From the NCBI GenBank assembly GCA_934087065.1, contig CAKOIS010000002.1:11880-75879 (forward strand): DNA of 64,000 nt, read 5' to 3'. The DNA is from an uncultured Bacilli bacterium. Its GTDB lineage: Bacteria > Bacillota_I > Bacilli_A > RF39 > UBA660. Position 1 is the first letter of the stretch. Each line of letters starts with the position of its first letter. The position numbers were made by a program, and so were the translations under genes. Shown here piece after piece: positions 10,904-17,270 of this stretch. Under the pieces are notes generated by a model. It saw only the letters and a program-made list of their open reading frames with translations. It made no database searches and had not been told where the DNA came from.

Positions 10904-13528
10904 ATGAAATATGTTTATTTATTTAGTGAAGGAAATAAAGATATGAAAAATTTACTTGGAGGAAAAGGAGCTAACTTAGCAGAAATGACTAAACTTGGTT
11001 TACCTGTTCCACAAGGTTTTACTATAACAACTGAAGCTTGTACAAAATATTATGAAGATGGAGAAGTTATCAGTAAAGAAATAGAAAGTGAAATACTAGA
11101 AAACATTAAAAAGATGGAAAGTATTACTGGAAAAAGTTTTGGTAGTACAACAAACCCACTTTTAGTTAGTGTTAGAAGTGGTGCAAGAGCAAGCATGCCT
11201 GGTATGATGGACACAATACTAAATTTAGGATTAAATGAAAGTGTTGTAGAAACTTTAGCAGAAAAAAGTGGAAACGCTAGATGGGCATGGGACTCTTATA
11301 GAAGATTTATTCAAATGTATTCTGATGTTGTAATGGAAGTTGGAAAGAAATACTTTGAAGTGTTAATAGATAAAATGAAAGAAAGTAAAGGTGTTAAACT
11401 AGATACTGAGTTAACTAGTGAAGATTTAAAAGAACTTGCTAATATGTTTAAAGCTGAATATAAAAGCAAAGTAGGAAGTGACTTCCCAACAGACCCAGTT
11501 GAGCAATTAATGGGTGCAGTAAAGGCAGTATTCCGTAGTTGGGATAACCCAAGAGCAAACGTTTATAGAAGAGATAATGATATACCATATTCTTGGGGAA
11601 CAGCTGTAAATGTTCAAATGATGGCATTTGGTAATATGGGTGAAACATCAGGGACTGGTGTTGCATTTACAAGAGACCCAGCAACTGGAGAAAAACATTT
11701 AATGGGAGAATTCTTAATGAATGCTCAAGGAGAAGACGTAGTAGCAGGAGTTCGTACACCTGAACCTATTAGTCACTTAAAAGATGTGATGCCTATAGTA
11801 TACGAAGAATTTGTTGGTATTTGTGAAAAACTAGAAAATCATTATCATGATATGCAAGATATGGAGTTTACTATAGAAGATAAACATTTATATATGTTAC
11901 AAACTAGAAATGGTAAAAGAACTGCTAAGGCTGCATTAAAAATCGCGTGTGATTTAGTAGATGAAGGAAAAATTACAGACAAAGAAGCTGTTTTAATGAT
12001 AGACCCAAGAAACTTAGATACATTACTTCACCCAACATTTGACCCAGCTGAGTTAAAGAATGCTACTGAAATAGGAAAAGGGTTAGCTGCATCTCCTGGG
12101 GCCGCTAGTGGAAAAGTTGTATTTACTGCAGGGGACGCTAAAAAAATGCATGAAAGTGGAGAAAAAGTAGTGCTTGTAAGACTAGAAACATCTCCTGAAG
12201 ATATAGAAGGAATGAAATCAAGTGAAGGAATTTTAACAGTACGAGGTGGAATGACTTCTCATGCTGCTGTAGTTGCTCGTGGAATGGGTTCATGCTGTGT
12301 AAGTGGATGCTCTAGTATTGTGATGGATGAAGAAAACAAAGTCTTCACATTAGGTGGTTATACTTTTCATGAAGGAGATGAAATTTCTATAGATGGTTCA
12401 ACTGGTAAAATTTATAAGGGACTTATTAATAAGGTAGATGCAACTATCACTGGAGAGTTTGGTCGTATCATGGCTTGGGCTGATAAATATAGACGTCTTG
12501 GTGTTAGAACTAATGCTGATACACCAAAAGATGCATTAAAAGCAAGAGAACTTGGTGCAGAAGGTATAGGACTATGCCGAACTGAACACATGTTCTTTGA
12601 AAAAGATAGAATAGCTGCAATTAGAGAAATGATAGTATCTGATACCGTGGAAGAAAGAAAGGCTGCTTTAGCTAAAATTGAACCAATGCAACAAAAAGAC
12701 TTTGAAGCACTTTATGAAGCAATGGAAGAATATAGTGTAACAATAAGATACTTAGACCCACCACTACATGAATTTGTGCCTACTACAGAAGAAGACATTA
12801 AATTACTTGCTGATACTCAAGGAAAGAGTGTTGAACAAGTTAAAAATATTATTGCTTCACTTCATGAATTTAACCCAATGATGGGACATCGTGGTTGTCG
12901 TCTTGCTGTTACTTTCCCTGAAATAGCAGAAATGCAAACTGAAGCTGTTATAAAAGCTGCAATTGAAGTTAGTAAGAGAACTGGTAAAATGGTAACTCCT
13001 GAAATAATGATACCTTTAGTTGGTGAAGTTAAAGAATTAAAATATGTTAAAAATATAGTAACTAAAACAGCTGATGAGATTATTAAGAATGAAGAAATAG
13101 ATATGACTTATCATGTTGGTACAATGATAGAAATTCCACGTGCTGCTTTAACTGCAGATGAAATAGCAAAAGAAGCTGACTTCTTCAGTTTTGGTACTAA
13201 CGATTTAACTCAAATGACATTTGGTTTTTCAAGAGATGACGCAGGTAAATTCTTAACTGACTATTATGATAAAAAGATATATGAGAATGATCCATTTGCT
13301 AAACTAGACCAAAAAGGTGTTGGAAAACTTGTTAAAATGGCTAGTACTTTAGGAAGGGAAGCAAATCCTAACATACATTTAGGAATATGTGGAGAGCATG
13401 GAGGAGATCCATCAAGCGTAGAGTTCTGTCATAATGTAGGACTAGATTACGTATCTTGCAGCCCTTACCGTGTTCCAATAGCAAGGCTTAGTGCTGCGCA
13501 AGCCGCAATCAATAACGGGGATAAATAA
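10904..13528 (+). CDS. ppdK: pyruvate, phosphate dikinase
   Basis: 874 aa. ATP-grasp N-terminal domain, phosphohistidine domain GGMTSHAAVVARGMG, PEP-utilising C-terminal TIM barrel. Confidence 0.9.
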   Translation: MKYVYLFSEGNKDMKNLLGGKGANLAEMTKLGLPVPQGFTITTEACTKYYEDGEVISKEIESEILENIKKMESITGKSFGSTTNPLLVSVRSGARASMPGMMDTILNLGLNESVVETLAEKSGNARWAWDSYRRFIQMYSDVVMEVGKKYFEVLIDKMKESKGVKLDTELTSEDLKELANMFKAEYKSKVGSDFPTDPVEQLMGAVKAVFRSWDNPRANVYRRDNDIPYSWGTAVNVQMMAFGNMGETSGTGVAFTRDPATGEKHLMGEFLMNAQGEDVVAGVRTPEPISHLKDVMPIVYEEFVGICEKLENHYHDMQDMEFTIEDKHLYMLQTRNGKRTAKAALKIACDLVDEGKITDKEAVLMIDPRNLDTLLHPTFDPAELKNATEIGKGLAASPGAASGKVVFTAGDAKKMHESGEKVVLVRLETSPEDIEGMKSSEGILTVRGGMTSHAAVVARGMGSCCVSGCSSIVMDEENKVFTLGGYTFHEGDEISIDGSTGKIYKGLINKVDATITGEFGRIMAWADKYRRLGVRTNADTPKDALKARELGAEGIGLCRTEHMFFEKDRIAAIREMIVSDTVEERKAALAKIEPMQQKDFEALYEAMEEYSVTIRYLDPPLHEFVPTTEEDIKLLADTQGKSVEQVKNIIASLHEFNPMMGHRGCRLAVTFPEIAEMQTEAVIKAAIEVSKRTGKMVTPEIMIPLVGEVKELKYVKNIVTKTADEIIKNEEIDMTYHVGTMIEIPRAALTADEIAKEADFFSFGTNDLTQMTFGFSRDDAGKFLTDYYDKKIYENDPFAKLDQKGVGKLVKMASTLGREANPNIHLGICGEHGGDPSSVEFCHNVGLDYVSCSPYRVPIARLSAAQAAINNGDK

Positions 13529-13546
13529 TTAATTAAAATTTATAAC

Positions 13547-13580
13547 CAAAAATCCTAGAAAAATCTAGGATTTTTTTGTT
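13547..13580 (+). terminator. rho-independent terminator (aaaaatcctag...ctaggattttttt)
   Basis: Perfect 11-bp stem followed by a T-run, 20 nt after the ppdK stop. Confidence 0.7.
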
Positions 13581-13719
13581 TTTGATATAAATTTATATTT
13601 AATTAATTTTTATATAAAATTAATATAAAATTTGAAAATTAGACTAAGATATTGATTAATGTCGCATATCCTTAGCTTTTTTTATACTTTTTTGCGACAG
13701 GAAAAAAGGAGGTGAGAGA

Positions 13720-14181
13720 GTGCGAAATCGAATATATTTAAGGCCTGAACTTTATGATTTATCACAAGGAACAAGAATTAAATTTGTAAGGATATTTAGA
13801 CATTTAACTCAAGATAATATTTCAGATGATTTAGGAATAACTGGAGAAAACAAAAGAAGAACTTTAACTAGATATGAAAAAGGAGATAGAAATCCAAGTA
13901 AATCTAGATTACAGGAATTATCTAAGATACTTTTAGTAAATGATAATTTAATTAAACAATATGAATTTAAATGTGTATCAGATATTTTGTATTTTCTTTT
14001 ATGGTTAGAAGAAATGTTTCCTAAAATTAGAATTGATTTAGGAACAAATGATGAAACAATTAATTTATTCTTTGACGAATGGAATAATATGAGAGATAAA
14101 AAACAAAAAATGATAATTAATTATGAAGAATATTTTGAATGGAAGATAAATTATAAAGTAAAGGAAGATAGTAATGAATGA
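13720..14181 (+). CDS. hypothetical protein with XRE-like HTH (GTG start)
   Basis: RBS aaggaggtgagag. HTH-like DNISDDLGITGENKRRTLTRYEKG. Sits in an AT-rich island. Confidence 0.4.
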   Translation: MRNRIYLRPELYDLSQGTRIKFVRIFRHLTQDNISDDLGITGENKRRTLTRYEKGDRNPSKSRLQELSKILLVNDNLIKQYEFKCVSDILYFLLWLEEMFPKIRIDLGTNDETINLFFDEWNNMRDKKQKMIINYEEYFEWKINYKVKEDSNE

Positions 14182-14431
14182 AATAATAAAAATTAAAATT
14201 AGTGAAATAGATGATTTTAAGAATCATCCATATAAAGTAGAGTTAGGCGATGAATTAAATGATTTAGTAGAAAGTATAAAATTAAATGGATTATTAGTAC
14301 CTATTGTAGTAAGAAGAAAAGAGAATGATAGATATGAATTGTTATCAGGTCATAGAAGAAAGAAAGTATATGAAATATTAGGGTTAGAAGAAATAGATGC
14401 AATTATTAAATTAATTTACAGTTTTAAATAA
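14174..14431 (+). pseudogene. ParB N-terminal (ParB/Srx) domain fragment, 85 aa, apparently truncated
   Basis: ParB-box-like GLLVPIVVRRKENDRYELLSGHRRKKV. Only ~85 aa where a full ParB is ~250-300 aa. Overlaps the previous ORF (ATGAATGA). Confidence 0.45.
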
Positions 14432-14575
14432 AAATTATTTTAACTATAATGTGTTAGAAACTAAAACTATTAATCACAAATGATTGAGGCAAGAGAAAAA
14501 TCTAGTCCTTTTAAATTTTATATTTATTAATTTATAAAAATATGGTATAATGTATTTGATGAGGAGGACAATAAT

Positions 14576-14842
14576 ATGAGTAAAAGATATGATGAATATA
14601 TAAATAAAGTTACAAATAAAATGAACAATAATTTTCTAGCTGAAGTAATACCAATGGTTCCAGATGTTGATCAAAAATTAGAAAGAGAAATTAGAGATAG
14701 AGCAATCATCGAATTGGTAAAAATGTCTATTAGCAAAGGAATGGAATTAACATATGGTGATATCTGTCTAATGATAGATGACGATCCTTCTGAAAAAGAA
14801 TATGAAAATATAAAAAATGAATTAACGCCTAGAACAAAGTAG
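14576..14842 (+). CDS. hypothetical protein (88 aa)
   Basis: RBS gaggagg. Upstream extended -10 promoter (tgGTATAAT) at about 14540-14553. Confidence 0.3.
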   Translation: MSKRYDEYINKVTNKMNNNFLAEVIPMVPDVDQKLEREIRDRAIIELVKMSISKGMELTYGDICLMIDDDPSEKEYENIKNELTPRTK

Positions 14843-15120
14843 TTTGAACTAATCAAATTGTATCTTTAAAATAATGATGGTATAATTATAATCATCATGT
14901 ATTAACGAGTAAGGTATCAAAACTTTTAAATAATATTTTTATAATGATTGGGATTTAATCTATTACCTTTATTGATTGCGGTATATACTATTGAAAGTTG
15001 GTAGTAGAAATCTATCCCCTATAAAGACGGTGGCACAAGCTGCTTTAAAAAGTGAATAGTTTATAGGCAATTAACTGTAATAAAAAAATAATTTCTGAAT
15101 AAAATATAAGTGTATGCTAT

Positions 15121-15149
15121 TTGACATTTTCTTAAAAATATAGTATACT
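15121..15149 (+). promoter_or_regulatory. sigma-A promoter TTGACA-17-TATACT driving the toxI-like repeats
   Basis: Consensus -35 TTGACA (15121-15126), 17-nt spacer, -10 TATACT (15144-15149). Confidence 0.6.
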
Positions 15150-15172
15150 TATAATGCACTGAGAAAGTGTGT

Positions 15173-15290
15173 AAATGTTTGCCGCTTATGGATGGCGCGG
15201 GTTATAAATGAGTCCAATCGCGAAATGTTAGTCGCTTCCGAGTGGTGCGAGTTATAAGTGATCTCGGTTGAAAATGTTTGAAAACTCCTA
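15173..15290 (+). ncRNA. putative type III antitoxin RNA (ToxI/antiQ-like): about 2.2 tandem ~50-nt repeats each starting AAATGTT
   Basis: Repeat 1 (15173-15222) and repeat 2 (15223-15272) match at 33 of 50 positions in register. A partial third repeat starts at 15273. The segment is GC-richer than its surroundings and lies between a promoter and a terminator directly upstream of the toxN-like CDS. Confidence 0.5.
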
Positions 15291-15312
15291 CATTTTGATG
15301 GAGTTTTCTTTT
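15281..15312 (+). terminator. rho-independent terminator/attenuator (aaaactcc...ggagttttcttttt)
   Basis: 8-bp stem plus a T-run, 35 nt upstream of the toxN start. Typical transcriptional attenuator of type III TA loci. Confidence 0.6.
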
Positions 15313-15346
15313 TCATTGTGATAAAATACTTTTAGGAGGCGATAAT

Positions 15347-15817
15347 ATGAAAGTACAAACCGGCTATATTTACCATATTAAAGACAAGTTTTTTGATGTT
15401 GTGAATGATGAAGGGCTAATGATAAATCATGAGAATTGTAAAACAAGACCAACATATTTTACTATTCGCGATAATGATATTTTATGGTTTATACCACTAA
15501 GTAGCAAAGTACAAAAATATCAGCCCATAATTGATAAAAAAATTAAAAAGTATGGAAGTTGTAAGTCTATATTAATAGGTCAAATTGCAAATAGAAAGTC
15601 AGCTATTTTACTACAAAATGCATTTCCAACTTTAGAAAAGTATATCGATCATGTACATACTATTAATGGTGCTCCCGTTAGAGTAGCTGATAATTTAAAA
15701 GATAAAATATTGGAAAACTTTAATTCTATGTTGGCTATGAAAAAAGAAGGTATTAATTTATTTTTTGCTGATATAGATACATTAAAACAAAAAATGTTGA
15801 ATGAGTTAAACGAATAA
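15347..15817 (+). CDS. toxN: type III toxin-antitoxin toxin, ToxN/AbiQ-family endoribonuclease
   Basis: 156 aa. The N-terminal YIYHIKDKFFDVVND and the TRPTYFTIRDNDILWFIPLSSKVQKY core resemble AbiQ/ToxN. The genomic context (promoter-repeats-terminator-CDS) is diagnostic. Confidence 0.65.
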   Translation: MKVQTGYIYHIKDKFFDVVNDEGLMINHENCKTRPTYFTIRDNDILWFIPLSSKVQKYQPIIDKKIKKYGSCKSILIGQIANRKSAILLQNAFPTLEKYIDHVHTINGAPVRVADNLKDKILENFNSMLAMKKEGINLFFADIDTLKQKMLNELNE

Positions 15818-15968
15818 CTAATTTAAAGAGAAATATTTAAAAATCAATTAAATTTTTCTCTTTTGTATTTATAAAAATACACTTAAAAATAAAGTTAAAA
15901 ATATTATAGAATTTCACTTGTAATATTTGCCCATTTAATATAAAATAGATTTATAGGAGGAATAGCTT

Positions 15969-17270
15969 ATGAATAAAGTAACACTTTTACCAGCAGACAT
16001 TTATCAAGTTATAAATAAGAGTTTACTAAGTGAAATGGATAAACTTGTTTTAAATATGCTTTATATGCCTATAATAGGAAATACTAGTGTTACTTTATAT
16101 AACATTTTATATAATGAATTAAAAGCTAACAATTATATCTCAAGTGAACTTACACATCACCACTTAATGACTAATTTAGGTGATACTTTAGAAAACATTA
16201 AAGAAGCAAGAATAAAACTAGAAGGAGTAGGTTTAATGAAAACTTACGTAAAAGAAGGAAATGTTAATTCATATGTTTATGAGTTATATAGTCCATTATC
16301 GGTAAGTGAGTTCTTTAACCATCCTATATTCAATATGGTGCTTTATAATAATGTTGGTAAAGAAGAATATTTAAGAATTAAATCTTATTTTAAATTGCCT
16401 ACTGTAAATTTAAGCAATTACACTGACATTACTAGTGCTTTTGATATGACTTTTAAAAGCAAAAATTATACAAGTTTTGAACTTAACTATGATAAAGAAC
16501 TTGTCAAAAAAGAAAAAAGACCACTTGAATATGAAATGATGTTTGACTTTGATGCGATGTTAAGTGGAATTCCAAAAAATCTTTTAAATGACAAAGCACT
16601 TATGAAAAGTTCTAAAGAACTTATTACAAACTTAGCTTTTCTATATAATTTAGACCCACTTACAATGGGGGATCTTGTTAAAATTAGTCTAAACGAAAAA
16701 GGTCTTATTGATAAAGAACTATTAAAAACAAATGTAAGAAAATACTATCAATTTAATAATGATGGCAGATTACCTAGCTTAATATTTAAATGCCAACCTG
16801 ATCATTTGAGAAGCCCAAGTGGAGATAATACTTTAAAAGGAAGAATTATTAAAGTATTTGAAACACTAAAACCTTATGACTTTTTAAAGAGCAAATATAA
16901 AGGTGTTAGACCAACTGAAAGAGATATGAAAATTCTTGAGATGCTTGTAGTTGACCTAAAACTTAACCCAGCAGTGGTAAATGTTTTAATTGATTATGTT
17001 TTAAAAACTCAAAATAATCGTTTAGTAAAAGCATATGTTGAAACAATTGCTGGTGAGTGGAAAAGAGCAAATATTGAAACAGCAAAAGAAGCAATGGAAT
17101 ACGCTGAAAAAGCACATAAGAGATTAAAAAAAATTAAAGAAACAAAAGTCTCACCTAAAGTGAAGAAAGAAGAAACAACACCAGACTGGTTTAATAAAAA
17201 TTTACAAAAAGAAGAAGTAAATGATGAAGCAAAAGAAGAAATAGAAAGTTTCTTAAAGGAGTATGTATGA
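15969..17270 (+). CDS. replication initiation and membrane attachment protein (DnaD-domain, B. subtilis DnaB-like)
   Basis: 433 aa. DnaB_2/DnaD-like domains. Translationally coupled to the downstream dnaI (ATGA overlap). Confidence 0.7.
   Translation: MNKVTLLPADIYQVINKSLLSEMDKLVLNMLYMPIIGNTSVTLYNILYNELKANNYISSELTHHHLMTNLGDTLENIKEARIKLEGVGLMKTYVKEGNVNSYVYELYSPLSVSEFFNHPIFNMVLYNNVGKEEYLRIKSYFKLPTVNLSNYTDITSAFDMTFKSKNYTSFELNYDKELVKKEKRPLEYEMMFDFDAMLSGIPKNLLNDKALMKSSKELITNLAFLYNLDPLTMGDLVKISLNEKGLIDKELLKTNVRKYYQFNNDGRLPSLIFKCQPDHLRSPSGDNTLKGRIIKVFETLKPYDFLKSKYKGVRPTERDMKILEMLVVDLKLNPAVVNVLIDYVLKTQNNRLVKAYVETIAGEWKRANIETAKEAMEYAEKAHKRLKKIKETKVSPKVKKEETTPDWFNKNLQKEEVNDEAKEEIESFLKEYV

Follow-up and report, generated by a model that had tools for sequence, protein, structure and literature searches.

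The window analysed here is a 64,000-nt stretch of an uncultured Bacilli genome (contig CAKOIS010000002.1, positions 11,880 to 75,879 of the forward strand), and the locus under study occupies its positions 15121–15817. It comprises a promoter, a leader hairpin, an array of tandem repeats (cptI) with about 2.2 copies (two full units plus a partial one), an intrinsic terminator and, directly downstream of the array on the same strand, an open reading frame (ORF) for a 156-residue protein (cptN). These features are collected in Table 1. An earlier note on this DNA had described a promoter, repeats, a terminator and an ORF in this order, all of which were found in the sequence, and had read them as a type III toxin–antitoxin locus. 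That class assignment held up, as the promoter, the tandem RNA repeats, the terminator and the gene for a predicted endoribonuclease toxin are all present. We consider the locus to be a chromosomal type III toxin–antitoxin module of the CptIN family, with a probability of roughly 0.9.

Table 1. Positions of the cptIN features within the window.
Feature	Position	Strand	Basis
P1, sigma-A type promoter of the cptI precursor (TTGACA-17-TATACT)	15121–15149	+	Consensus match
5' leader hairpin GCACU-GAGAA-AGUGU, predicted transcript start	15156–15170	+	Folding energy -4.9 kcal/mol, z = -3.9
cptI unit 1, 50 nt	15173–15222	+	AAATGTT start, alignment
cptI unit 2, 49 nt	15223–15271	+	AAATGTT start, alignment
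Partial third unit AAAUGUUUG, 9 nt	15272–15280	+	AAATGTT start at 15272
Intrinsic terminator/attenuator, 9-bp stem, 11-nt loop, then T-run	15280–15314	+	Folding, -11.8 kcal/mol, z = -3.3
P2, candidate second promoter, extended -10 TGTGATAAAAT (TRTGnTAnnnT)	15317–15327	+	Pattern conservation in relatives
Ribosome-binding site AGGAGG of cptN	15334–15339	+	Read from sequence
cptN, putative CptN-family endoribonuclease toxin, 156 residues	15347–15817	+	NF047359 and 4RMO matches

Toxin protein

The ORF product matched the NCBIfam model NF047359 (CptIN family toxin, equivalog) with 159.2 bits, against a curated cutoff of 90, over profile positions 1–150 of 150. This was the only significant match in NCBIfam, and homology to TenpN was not found. 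Among all sequences of the Protein Data Bank (PDB), the sole real match was chain A of the CptN crystal structure, 4RMO (E = 2.4e-18, residues 6–139). No Pfam family was matched at E ≤ 1, and hence not ToxN_toxin, nor was any PADLOC model. The earlier note had assigned the protein to the ToxIN/AbiQ family and suggested profile searches; these were negative for ToxN (in Pfam, at E ≤ 1) and positive for the CptIN toxin, so that the family had to be corrected.

A ToxIN/AbiQ-family locus, with a ToxN-type toxin and a ToxI-type antitoxin joined in a 3:3 triangular complex, would have the same overall gene layout, and CptN and ToxN share their fold and a similar active-site network (PMC4627078). This alternative is nevertheless very unlikely, given the passed CptIN model, the absence of Pfam and PADLOC matches and a PDB relative that is CptN, as well as a repeat length, a copy number and an RNA sequence that fit CptI and not ToxI.

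CptN from Eubacterium rectale (CptN_Er) has a Ser-Ser/Thr-Arg triad in its active site, while Asp81, Ser85 and Tyr104 surround and specify the adenine at which the RNA is cut (Rao et al. 2015, PMC4627078). In an alignment of 81 clade proteins with the 4RMO sequence, S52-S53-K54 of the window protein fell on the CptN_Er triad S51-S52-R53. Within the clade, S52 was retained in 81/81 proteins and S53 in 79/81, while position 54 was occupied by lysine in 79 and by arginine in 2. Ser85 is likewise retained in the window CptN.

Layout and transcription signals in related loci

A scan of species-representative genomes yielded 80 related loci with toxins 63–91% identical, nearly all from metagenome-assembled genomes of uncultured gut Bacilli, including "Clostridium sp." CAG:628, CAG:914 and CAG:302. 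At least 76 of the 80 share a common order of parts upstream of the homologue, consisting of a promoter, a short self-complementary leader, two units, a partial unit, a hairpin and a ribosome-binding site, and this recurrence rules out chance. The units of the relatives span 48–51 nt, each starting with (A/C)(A/C/G)ATGTT. Upstream of the toxin gene, L006 and L073 run into the end of their contigs, the third junction of L008 is a variant (GACAATG) outside the extraction pattern, and the array of L022 is displaced further upstream by a ~230-nt insertion between the cptI terminator and cptN.

In that insertion (585–800 of L022), a separate TTGACA-17-TATAAT promoter was seen along with a strongly structured segment (z = -4.0), a possible five-codon ORF and a terminator-like hairpin; it looks like a riboswitch, but no Rfam match was obtained and this candidate was discarded. 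In L024 (2583–2722), both full units and P1 have been lost and the toxin ORF is still of full length; what is left is the leader, the partial unit and the terminator, directly after the ppdK gene.

P1 agrees with the consensus at 11 of 12 positions and is the best promoter-like site within 14800–16000; its equivalent, TTGAC(A/T)-17-TATA(C/T)T, stands at the corresponding place in most related loci. At the site of the leader hairpin, the relatives have other sequences that are still self-complementary (e.g. GCATT...AATGC), and the hairpin perhaps protects the 5' end of the transcript.

In CptIN loci, the repeats are separated from the toxin gene by a rho-independent terminator, and one was found here, with stem arms GAAAACTCC and GGAGTTTTC at 15280–15308 followed by TTTTTC. 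A simple terminator scan did not pick up this hairpin because of the length of its loop. The terminator hairpins of the related loci vary in their stems, have energies of -10.8 to -16.5 kcal/mol and lead into GTTTTCTTTT or a sequence close to it.

The P2 element sits between the T-run of the terminator and the ribosome-binding site and ends 19 nt before the cptN ATG. The extended -10 pattern recurs in 58 of the 76 relatives, versus 4.8% of shuffles; its distance is fixed in 32 of them, and it usually ends 19 nt ahead of the ATG. Several loci with a spacer of 100–140 nt have a full TTGAC(G/A)-17-TAnnnT promoter in place of the extended -10. Judging from these patterns, the toxin gene may have its own promoter.

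Repeat array and pseudoknot

In register, the two full units agree at 33 of 50 positions (66%). Identity at an offset of 50 nt averages 14.7 window-wide (standard deviation 3.3), with 0 of 9129 sampled positions reaching 33, and a motif search found exactly two full units in the whole window. The array has a G+C content of 46.5%, the DNA just upstream of it 24.5% and the window as a whole 28.8%; the repeats of ~50 nt, their agreement in register and their higher GC content are as first described. Tandem Repeats Finder reported nothing at the array because the units are too divergent, and the repeats were recovered with find_repeats and by alignment.

The differences between the two units include four compensatory base-pair changes. 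Within the 76 related loci, unit-to-unit identity has a median of 80% (range 65–98%) and reaches at least 95% in only 6, so that non-identical repeats are the rule in this gut-Bacilli branch. A partial unit starting with AAAT was found in 76/76 extracted arrays; in the window, it is predicted to supply the downstream half of the last processing site.

The pairs of a pseudoknot read from the sequences were counted in an alignment of 94 distinct repeat units. Stem S1 pairs alignment columns 10–14 with 28–32, and stem S2 pairs columns 16–21 with 45–50. Standard pairs occupied 86.2% of the cells, compared with 30–53% when the 3' partners were slid by 1–3 columns, and the shuffles all fell short of the observed scores for pairing and for covariation. 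Changes on both sides occurred in 7 of the 11 pairs. With 0 or 1 unpaired cases each, pair 11:31 was UA in 70 and CG in 24 units, pair 18:48 CG in 56 and UA in 37, pair 19:47 GC in 86 and AU in 8, pair 20:46 GC in 87 and AU in 6, and pair 21:45 AU in 54 and GC in 40; the terminal pairs 10:32 and 16:50 were weak.

On this covariation, the cptI unit is predicted to be an H-type pseudoknot of two interleaved helices, in the order S1 5' strand, L1 of 1–2 nt, S2 5' strand, UGG(Y) linker, S1 3' strand, A-rich loop of 12 nt and S2 3' strand. In unit 1, S1 joins 15182–15185 with 15197–15200 and S2 joins 15189–15192 with 15213–15216, and the A-rich loop UAUAAAUG lies at 15203–15210; in unit 2, S1 joins 15232–15235 with 15247–15250 and S2 joins 15238–15242 with 15263–15267. 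Invariant positions occur in the 5' tail (AUGUU) and the CGCU of S1, in the UGG linker, among the adenines of the loop and at the 3' G, and the helix sequences vary. The protein would therefore read the tails and the loop, with the helices only having to pair. Neither single units nor the whole leader gave an informative result in minimum-free-energy folding (z from -1.5 to +0.4), as is expected for pseudoknots, and RNAalifold recovered only S1.

These data also bear on two other explanations of the array. The repeats could be a cis-acting leader or attenuator of the downstream ORF instead of a trans-acting antitoxin, as they lie in its 5' region and are followed by a terminator, and a whole-leader fold without pseudoknots is possible, though not unusual (z = -1.5). 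The structure that covaries, however, is a per-unit pseudoknot repeated twice and not a leader-wide fold, the unit is homologous to a crystallised, CptN-bound RNA that is itself sufficient for antitoxicity in trans, and the stretch from the terminator to the ORF holds a candidate promoter; we thus regard a purely cis-acting role as highly improbable.

Alternatively, the array region might encode the 55-residue ORF found on the minus strand (15149–15316), since a stop-free stretch of at least 50 codons occurs in 46 of 76 relatives, which is above expectation. We give this practically no weight, as its ATG is not preceded by a Shine-Dalgarno sequence, the ORF is broken in 30/76 loci and the substitutions are compensatory at the RNA level; moreover, the array lengths of the relatives (97, 98, 99, 100 and 102 nt) would shift the frame.

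Homology to the crystallised E. rectale CptI

The 45-nt unit of E. rectale CptI (CptI_Er) was derived from the reverse primer "CptI-WT" (PMC4627078), whose reverse complement is AAGUUUACCACUGACCGAUAUGUGGUAUAUAAAUGGUCGGGUUGA. The derived numbering fits every residue named in that paper (G13, G22–24, A27–G35, A29, U30, A33, G44 and A45). S1 of CptI_Er (A7–C11 with G22–U26) and the 5' strand of its S2 align column for column with S1 and S2 of the window units. The loop UAUAAAUG is common to CptI_Er and unit 1, and two residues of the CptI_Er loop, A29 and the kink U30, are both required for antitoxicity (PMC4627078). The 3' end GUUGA, followed by AA, is common to CptI_Er and unit 2.

E. rectale CptI is cut after A45 (GUUGA|AAG), which leaves a 2',3'-cyclic phosphate (PMC4627078), and a cut at 15271|15272 of the window is predicted by analogy. 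For the predicted cuts near 15222/15223 and 15172/15173, the position may be off by 1 nt, as the junctions there are GCG-AAAUG and UGU-AAAUG.

Family assignment

The assignment to CptIN is carried by the anatomy of the locus, the family membership of the toxin, the conservation of catalytic residues and layout, and the covariation of the pseudoknot. In the 2012 survey of 33 loci, the repeats of cptIN, the family with the Coprococcus catus locus as its prototype, measured 40–48 nt (mean 44.8) in 1.9–3.4 copies, the toxins averaged 149 residues and all cptIN loci were chromosomal, mostly from Firmicutes (Blower et al. 2012, PMC3401426). ToxIN/AbiQ repeats are ~34–36 nt long (family range 31–62, mean 38) and near identical, in contrast to the units of 49–50 nt with 66% identity found here. 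The earlier note was thus right that ~50 nt in 2.2 copies is unlike ToxI; its suggestion of a distinct new subfamily was not upheld, since these values are typical of known CptIN.

The locus resembles E. rectale CptIN in its homologous toxin with a Ser-Ser-Arg/Lys triad and Ser85, its chromosomal location in a Firmicutes host and its array of about two repeats and a partial one ahead of a terminator. H-type pseudoknots with an A-rich loop (A-minor twist) characterise the antitoxin units of CptIN. The RNA of the window resembles CptI_Er in being a predicted H-type pseudoknot with a short L1, the A-rich loop UAUAAAUG, a GUUGA 3' end and an AA(A/G)U 5' end. It differs in the length of the units (49–50 versus 45 nt) and in a UGG(Y) linker of 4–6 nt that joins the S2 5' strand to the S1 3' strand, where CptI_Er has UAU. 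Further differences from the E. rectale system are the 66% unit identity, His104 for Tyr104, the lack of conservation of Asp81, a protein identity of about one third and the possible separate toxin promoter.

With ToxIN of Pectobacterium atrosepticum and Bacillus thuringiensis and AbiQ/antiQ of Lactococcus, the locus shares the type III logic, in which a repeat RNA is processed by its own toxin into inhibiting pseudoknot monomers and a terminator separates the genes, as well as related catalytic chemistry (PMC4627078). ToxI differs from it in its 34–36-nt units, its 2.9–5.5 near-identical copies and its 3:3 heterohexamer. TenpIN of Photorhabdus luminescens is similar in having long repeats (39–57 nt) in ~2 copies, which are non-identical in some tenpIN loci (PMC12283969), but its toxin belongs to a different family.

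Abortive infection, a role implied by the earlier note, has been shown for ToxIN and AbiQ and for no CptIN system (PMC3401426, PMC4627078). CptIN_Er stabilises plasmids and gave no protection against >200 coliphages in Escherichia coli (PMC4627078), and two cptIN loci were likewise without phage protection in the 2012 study (PMC3401426).

Several observations weigh against the CptIN assignment. The units are 1–2 nt longer than the surveyed range, and they are only 66% identical, whereas the cptI repeats in the literature, like those of toxIN and unlike some tenpIN loci, are near identical (2025 paper, PMC12283969). The junction of units 1 and 2 reads GCG|AAAUG instead of GA|AAAUG, which leaves the cut register uncertain there. 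A permissive Rfam search returned chance-level matches only (rnk leader, CRISPR repeat and snoRNAs), and the CptI family appears not to be curated in that database. The AlphaFold2 model, computed from a 30-sequence alignment of homologues 76–99% identical, had a predicted local distance difference test (pLDDT) score of 47 and was unusable.

Within the protein, the CptN_Er residue that stacks on G44 and places the scissile A45, Tyr104 (PMC4627078), is replaced by His104 in 81/81 clade proteins (window codon 15656–15658), and Asp81 lacks a clear counterpart, the position being variable in the clade. His102 and His104 lie within a YIDHxH motif and are both invariant in the 81 proteins, position 102 being arginine in CptN_Er. 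The protein is accordingly a member of the CptN family in which the residue that positions the base has changed in a clade-specific way.

Also among these adverse points, the window CptN carries a cysteine (G31C, codon 15437–15439) at a near-invariant glycine, which is present in 111 of the 113 close cluster representatives that could be scored. This substitution would suit a decayed or attenuated CptIN locus that had kept its architecture with a weakened toxin and no longer exerted toxin–antitoxin action in this strain. So would L024, which has lost its array and whose only difference from L023, its nearest relative with an array, is G31E, as well as the existence of truncated toxins such as that of L038 (128 residues) and the report of short cptN remnants (PMC3401426). 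We hold decay to be very unlikely. The ORF of the window is of full length with an intact catalytic triad, its array, promoter and terminator are intact, and the exact protein was found on 14 contigs from several samples. In addition, P0113, which has G31E, retains an intact array, and therefore no rule ties the G31 substitution to antitoxin loss.

The locus is thus a new member of a known family, CptIN, within which it shows some variant features; it is not a new kind of system. To our knowledge, only one structure of the family has been solved and no physiological role is known for it. The present analysis corrects the family assignment and adds a well-populated branch from uncultured gut Bacilli to CptIN. 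The 76 related loci provide natural covariation data that confirm the crystallographic pseudoknot and reveal where the RNA is constrained. Constraint falls on the single-stranded tails at both ends, on the UGG linker and on the A-rich loop, and the helices can change freely in sequence. The non-identical repeats, the His-for-Tyr change and the replacement of whole cassettes between near-identical genomes, described below, offer test cases for the co-evolution of the toxin with an RNA that is both substrate and inhibitor. The known picture of type III systems is unchanged by these results.

Proposed mechanism

The toxicity, self-processing, exact cut sites, stoichiometry and physiological role outlined here are taken by homology from E. 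rectale CptIN. P1 would transcribe a short precursor with the 5' hairpin, two CptI units of ~50 nt and the partial third unit, and the majority of transcripts would end at the hairpin and T-run of the terminator. The cptN mRNA would arise from read-through, from the weak extended -10 promoter just past the terminator, or from both. CptN is expected to act as an RNase A-like, metal-independent endoribonuclease and to cut the precursor at the three unit junctions, at approximately (G)A|AAAUGUU, near 15172/3, 15222/3 and 15271/2. The products would be two H-type pseudoknot RNAs of ~50 nt, each remaining bound over the active sites of CptN protomers as part of a closed protein–RNA ring (2:2 in the E. 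rectale complex) that would hold the toxin inactive. If cptI transcription stopped or the locus were lost, CptI would no longer be replenished, and free CptN could then cleave cellular RNA, and phage RNA if present, leading to growth arrest.

Genomic context and probable cassette exchange

The locus lies between ppdK (10904–13528) and the genes for a DnaB_2/DnaD-like protein and a DnaI-like ATPase, and with these neighbours it is chromosomal and placed among housekeeping genes. Among the 80 related loci, 31 have ppdK upstream within the 3-kb flank. The flanks of L054 (UBA11492) are 97–100% identical to those of the window, with 98% amino-acid identity for each of PpdK, the DnaD-like protein and DnaI. 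Between these flanks, the cptI–cptN cassettes (window ~15155–15800, L054 2810–3470) are only 50–85% identical at the DNA level and the CptN proteins 63%; the divergent stretch starts near the cptI transcript start and ends near the cptN stop. The L054 toxin groups with a different subclade, at 84–86%. Near-identical flanks around a divergent cassette with a toxin of another subclade indicate that the whole cassette was replaced at a fixed site.

It is a tentative possibility, and one we would not yet favour, that in this clade of gut Bacilli cptIN is a swappable cassette with a fixed place on the chromosome just downstream of ppdK, with non-identical pseudoknots and its own toxin promoter, whose alleles are exchanged. 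If so, the two non-identical units would give mixed CptI-1/CptI-2 rings, the ratio of antitoxin to toxin would be set by two promoters and not by terminator read-through alone, and alleles of toxin plus RNA would be swapped between strains under diversifying selection, e.g. from phage.

Compared with L054 and L001 (CAG:628), the window contains an insertion of ~1.53 kb (13507–15032) within the last ~7 codons of ppdK, the original 3' end of which survives at ~15036–15058. The insertion holds genes for an HTH_19/HTH_3 protein (13720–14181), an 85-residue product with ParB_N only (14174–14431) and an 88-residue product of no family (14576–14842). An imperfect 8-nt direct repeat, GCGCAAGC/GCACAAGC, was seen at its edges (13497–13504 and 15036–15043). 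A longer version of the insertion is present in the metagenome contig L083, with a 284-residue ParB_N protein and a 265-residue ORF.

The 2012 survey found cptIN on chromosomes only (PMC3401426). Distant CptN homologues (32–35% identity) were observed on 16 plasmid records of PLSDB, all annotated as hypothetical protein and carried by Clostridium perfringens, Megamonas, Oscillibacter and others. No CptN homologue was found in GenBank phages. One contig of IMG/VR (L087) carries a 68% identical copy with matching layout, adjoining a gene with an LPD28 domain.

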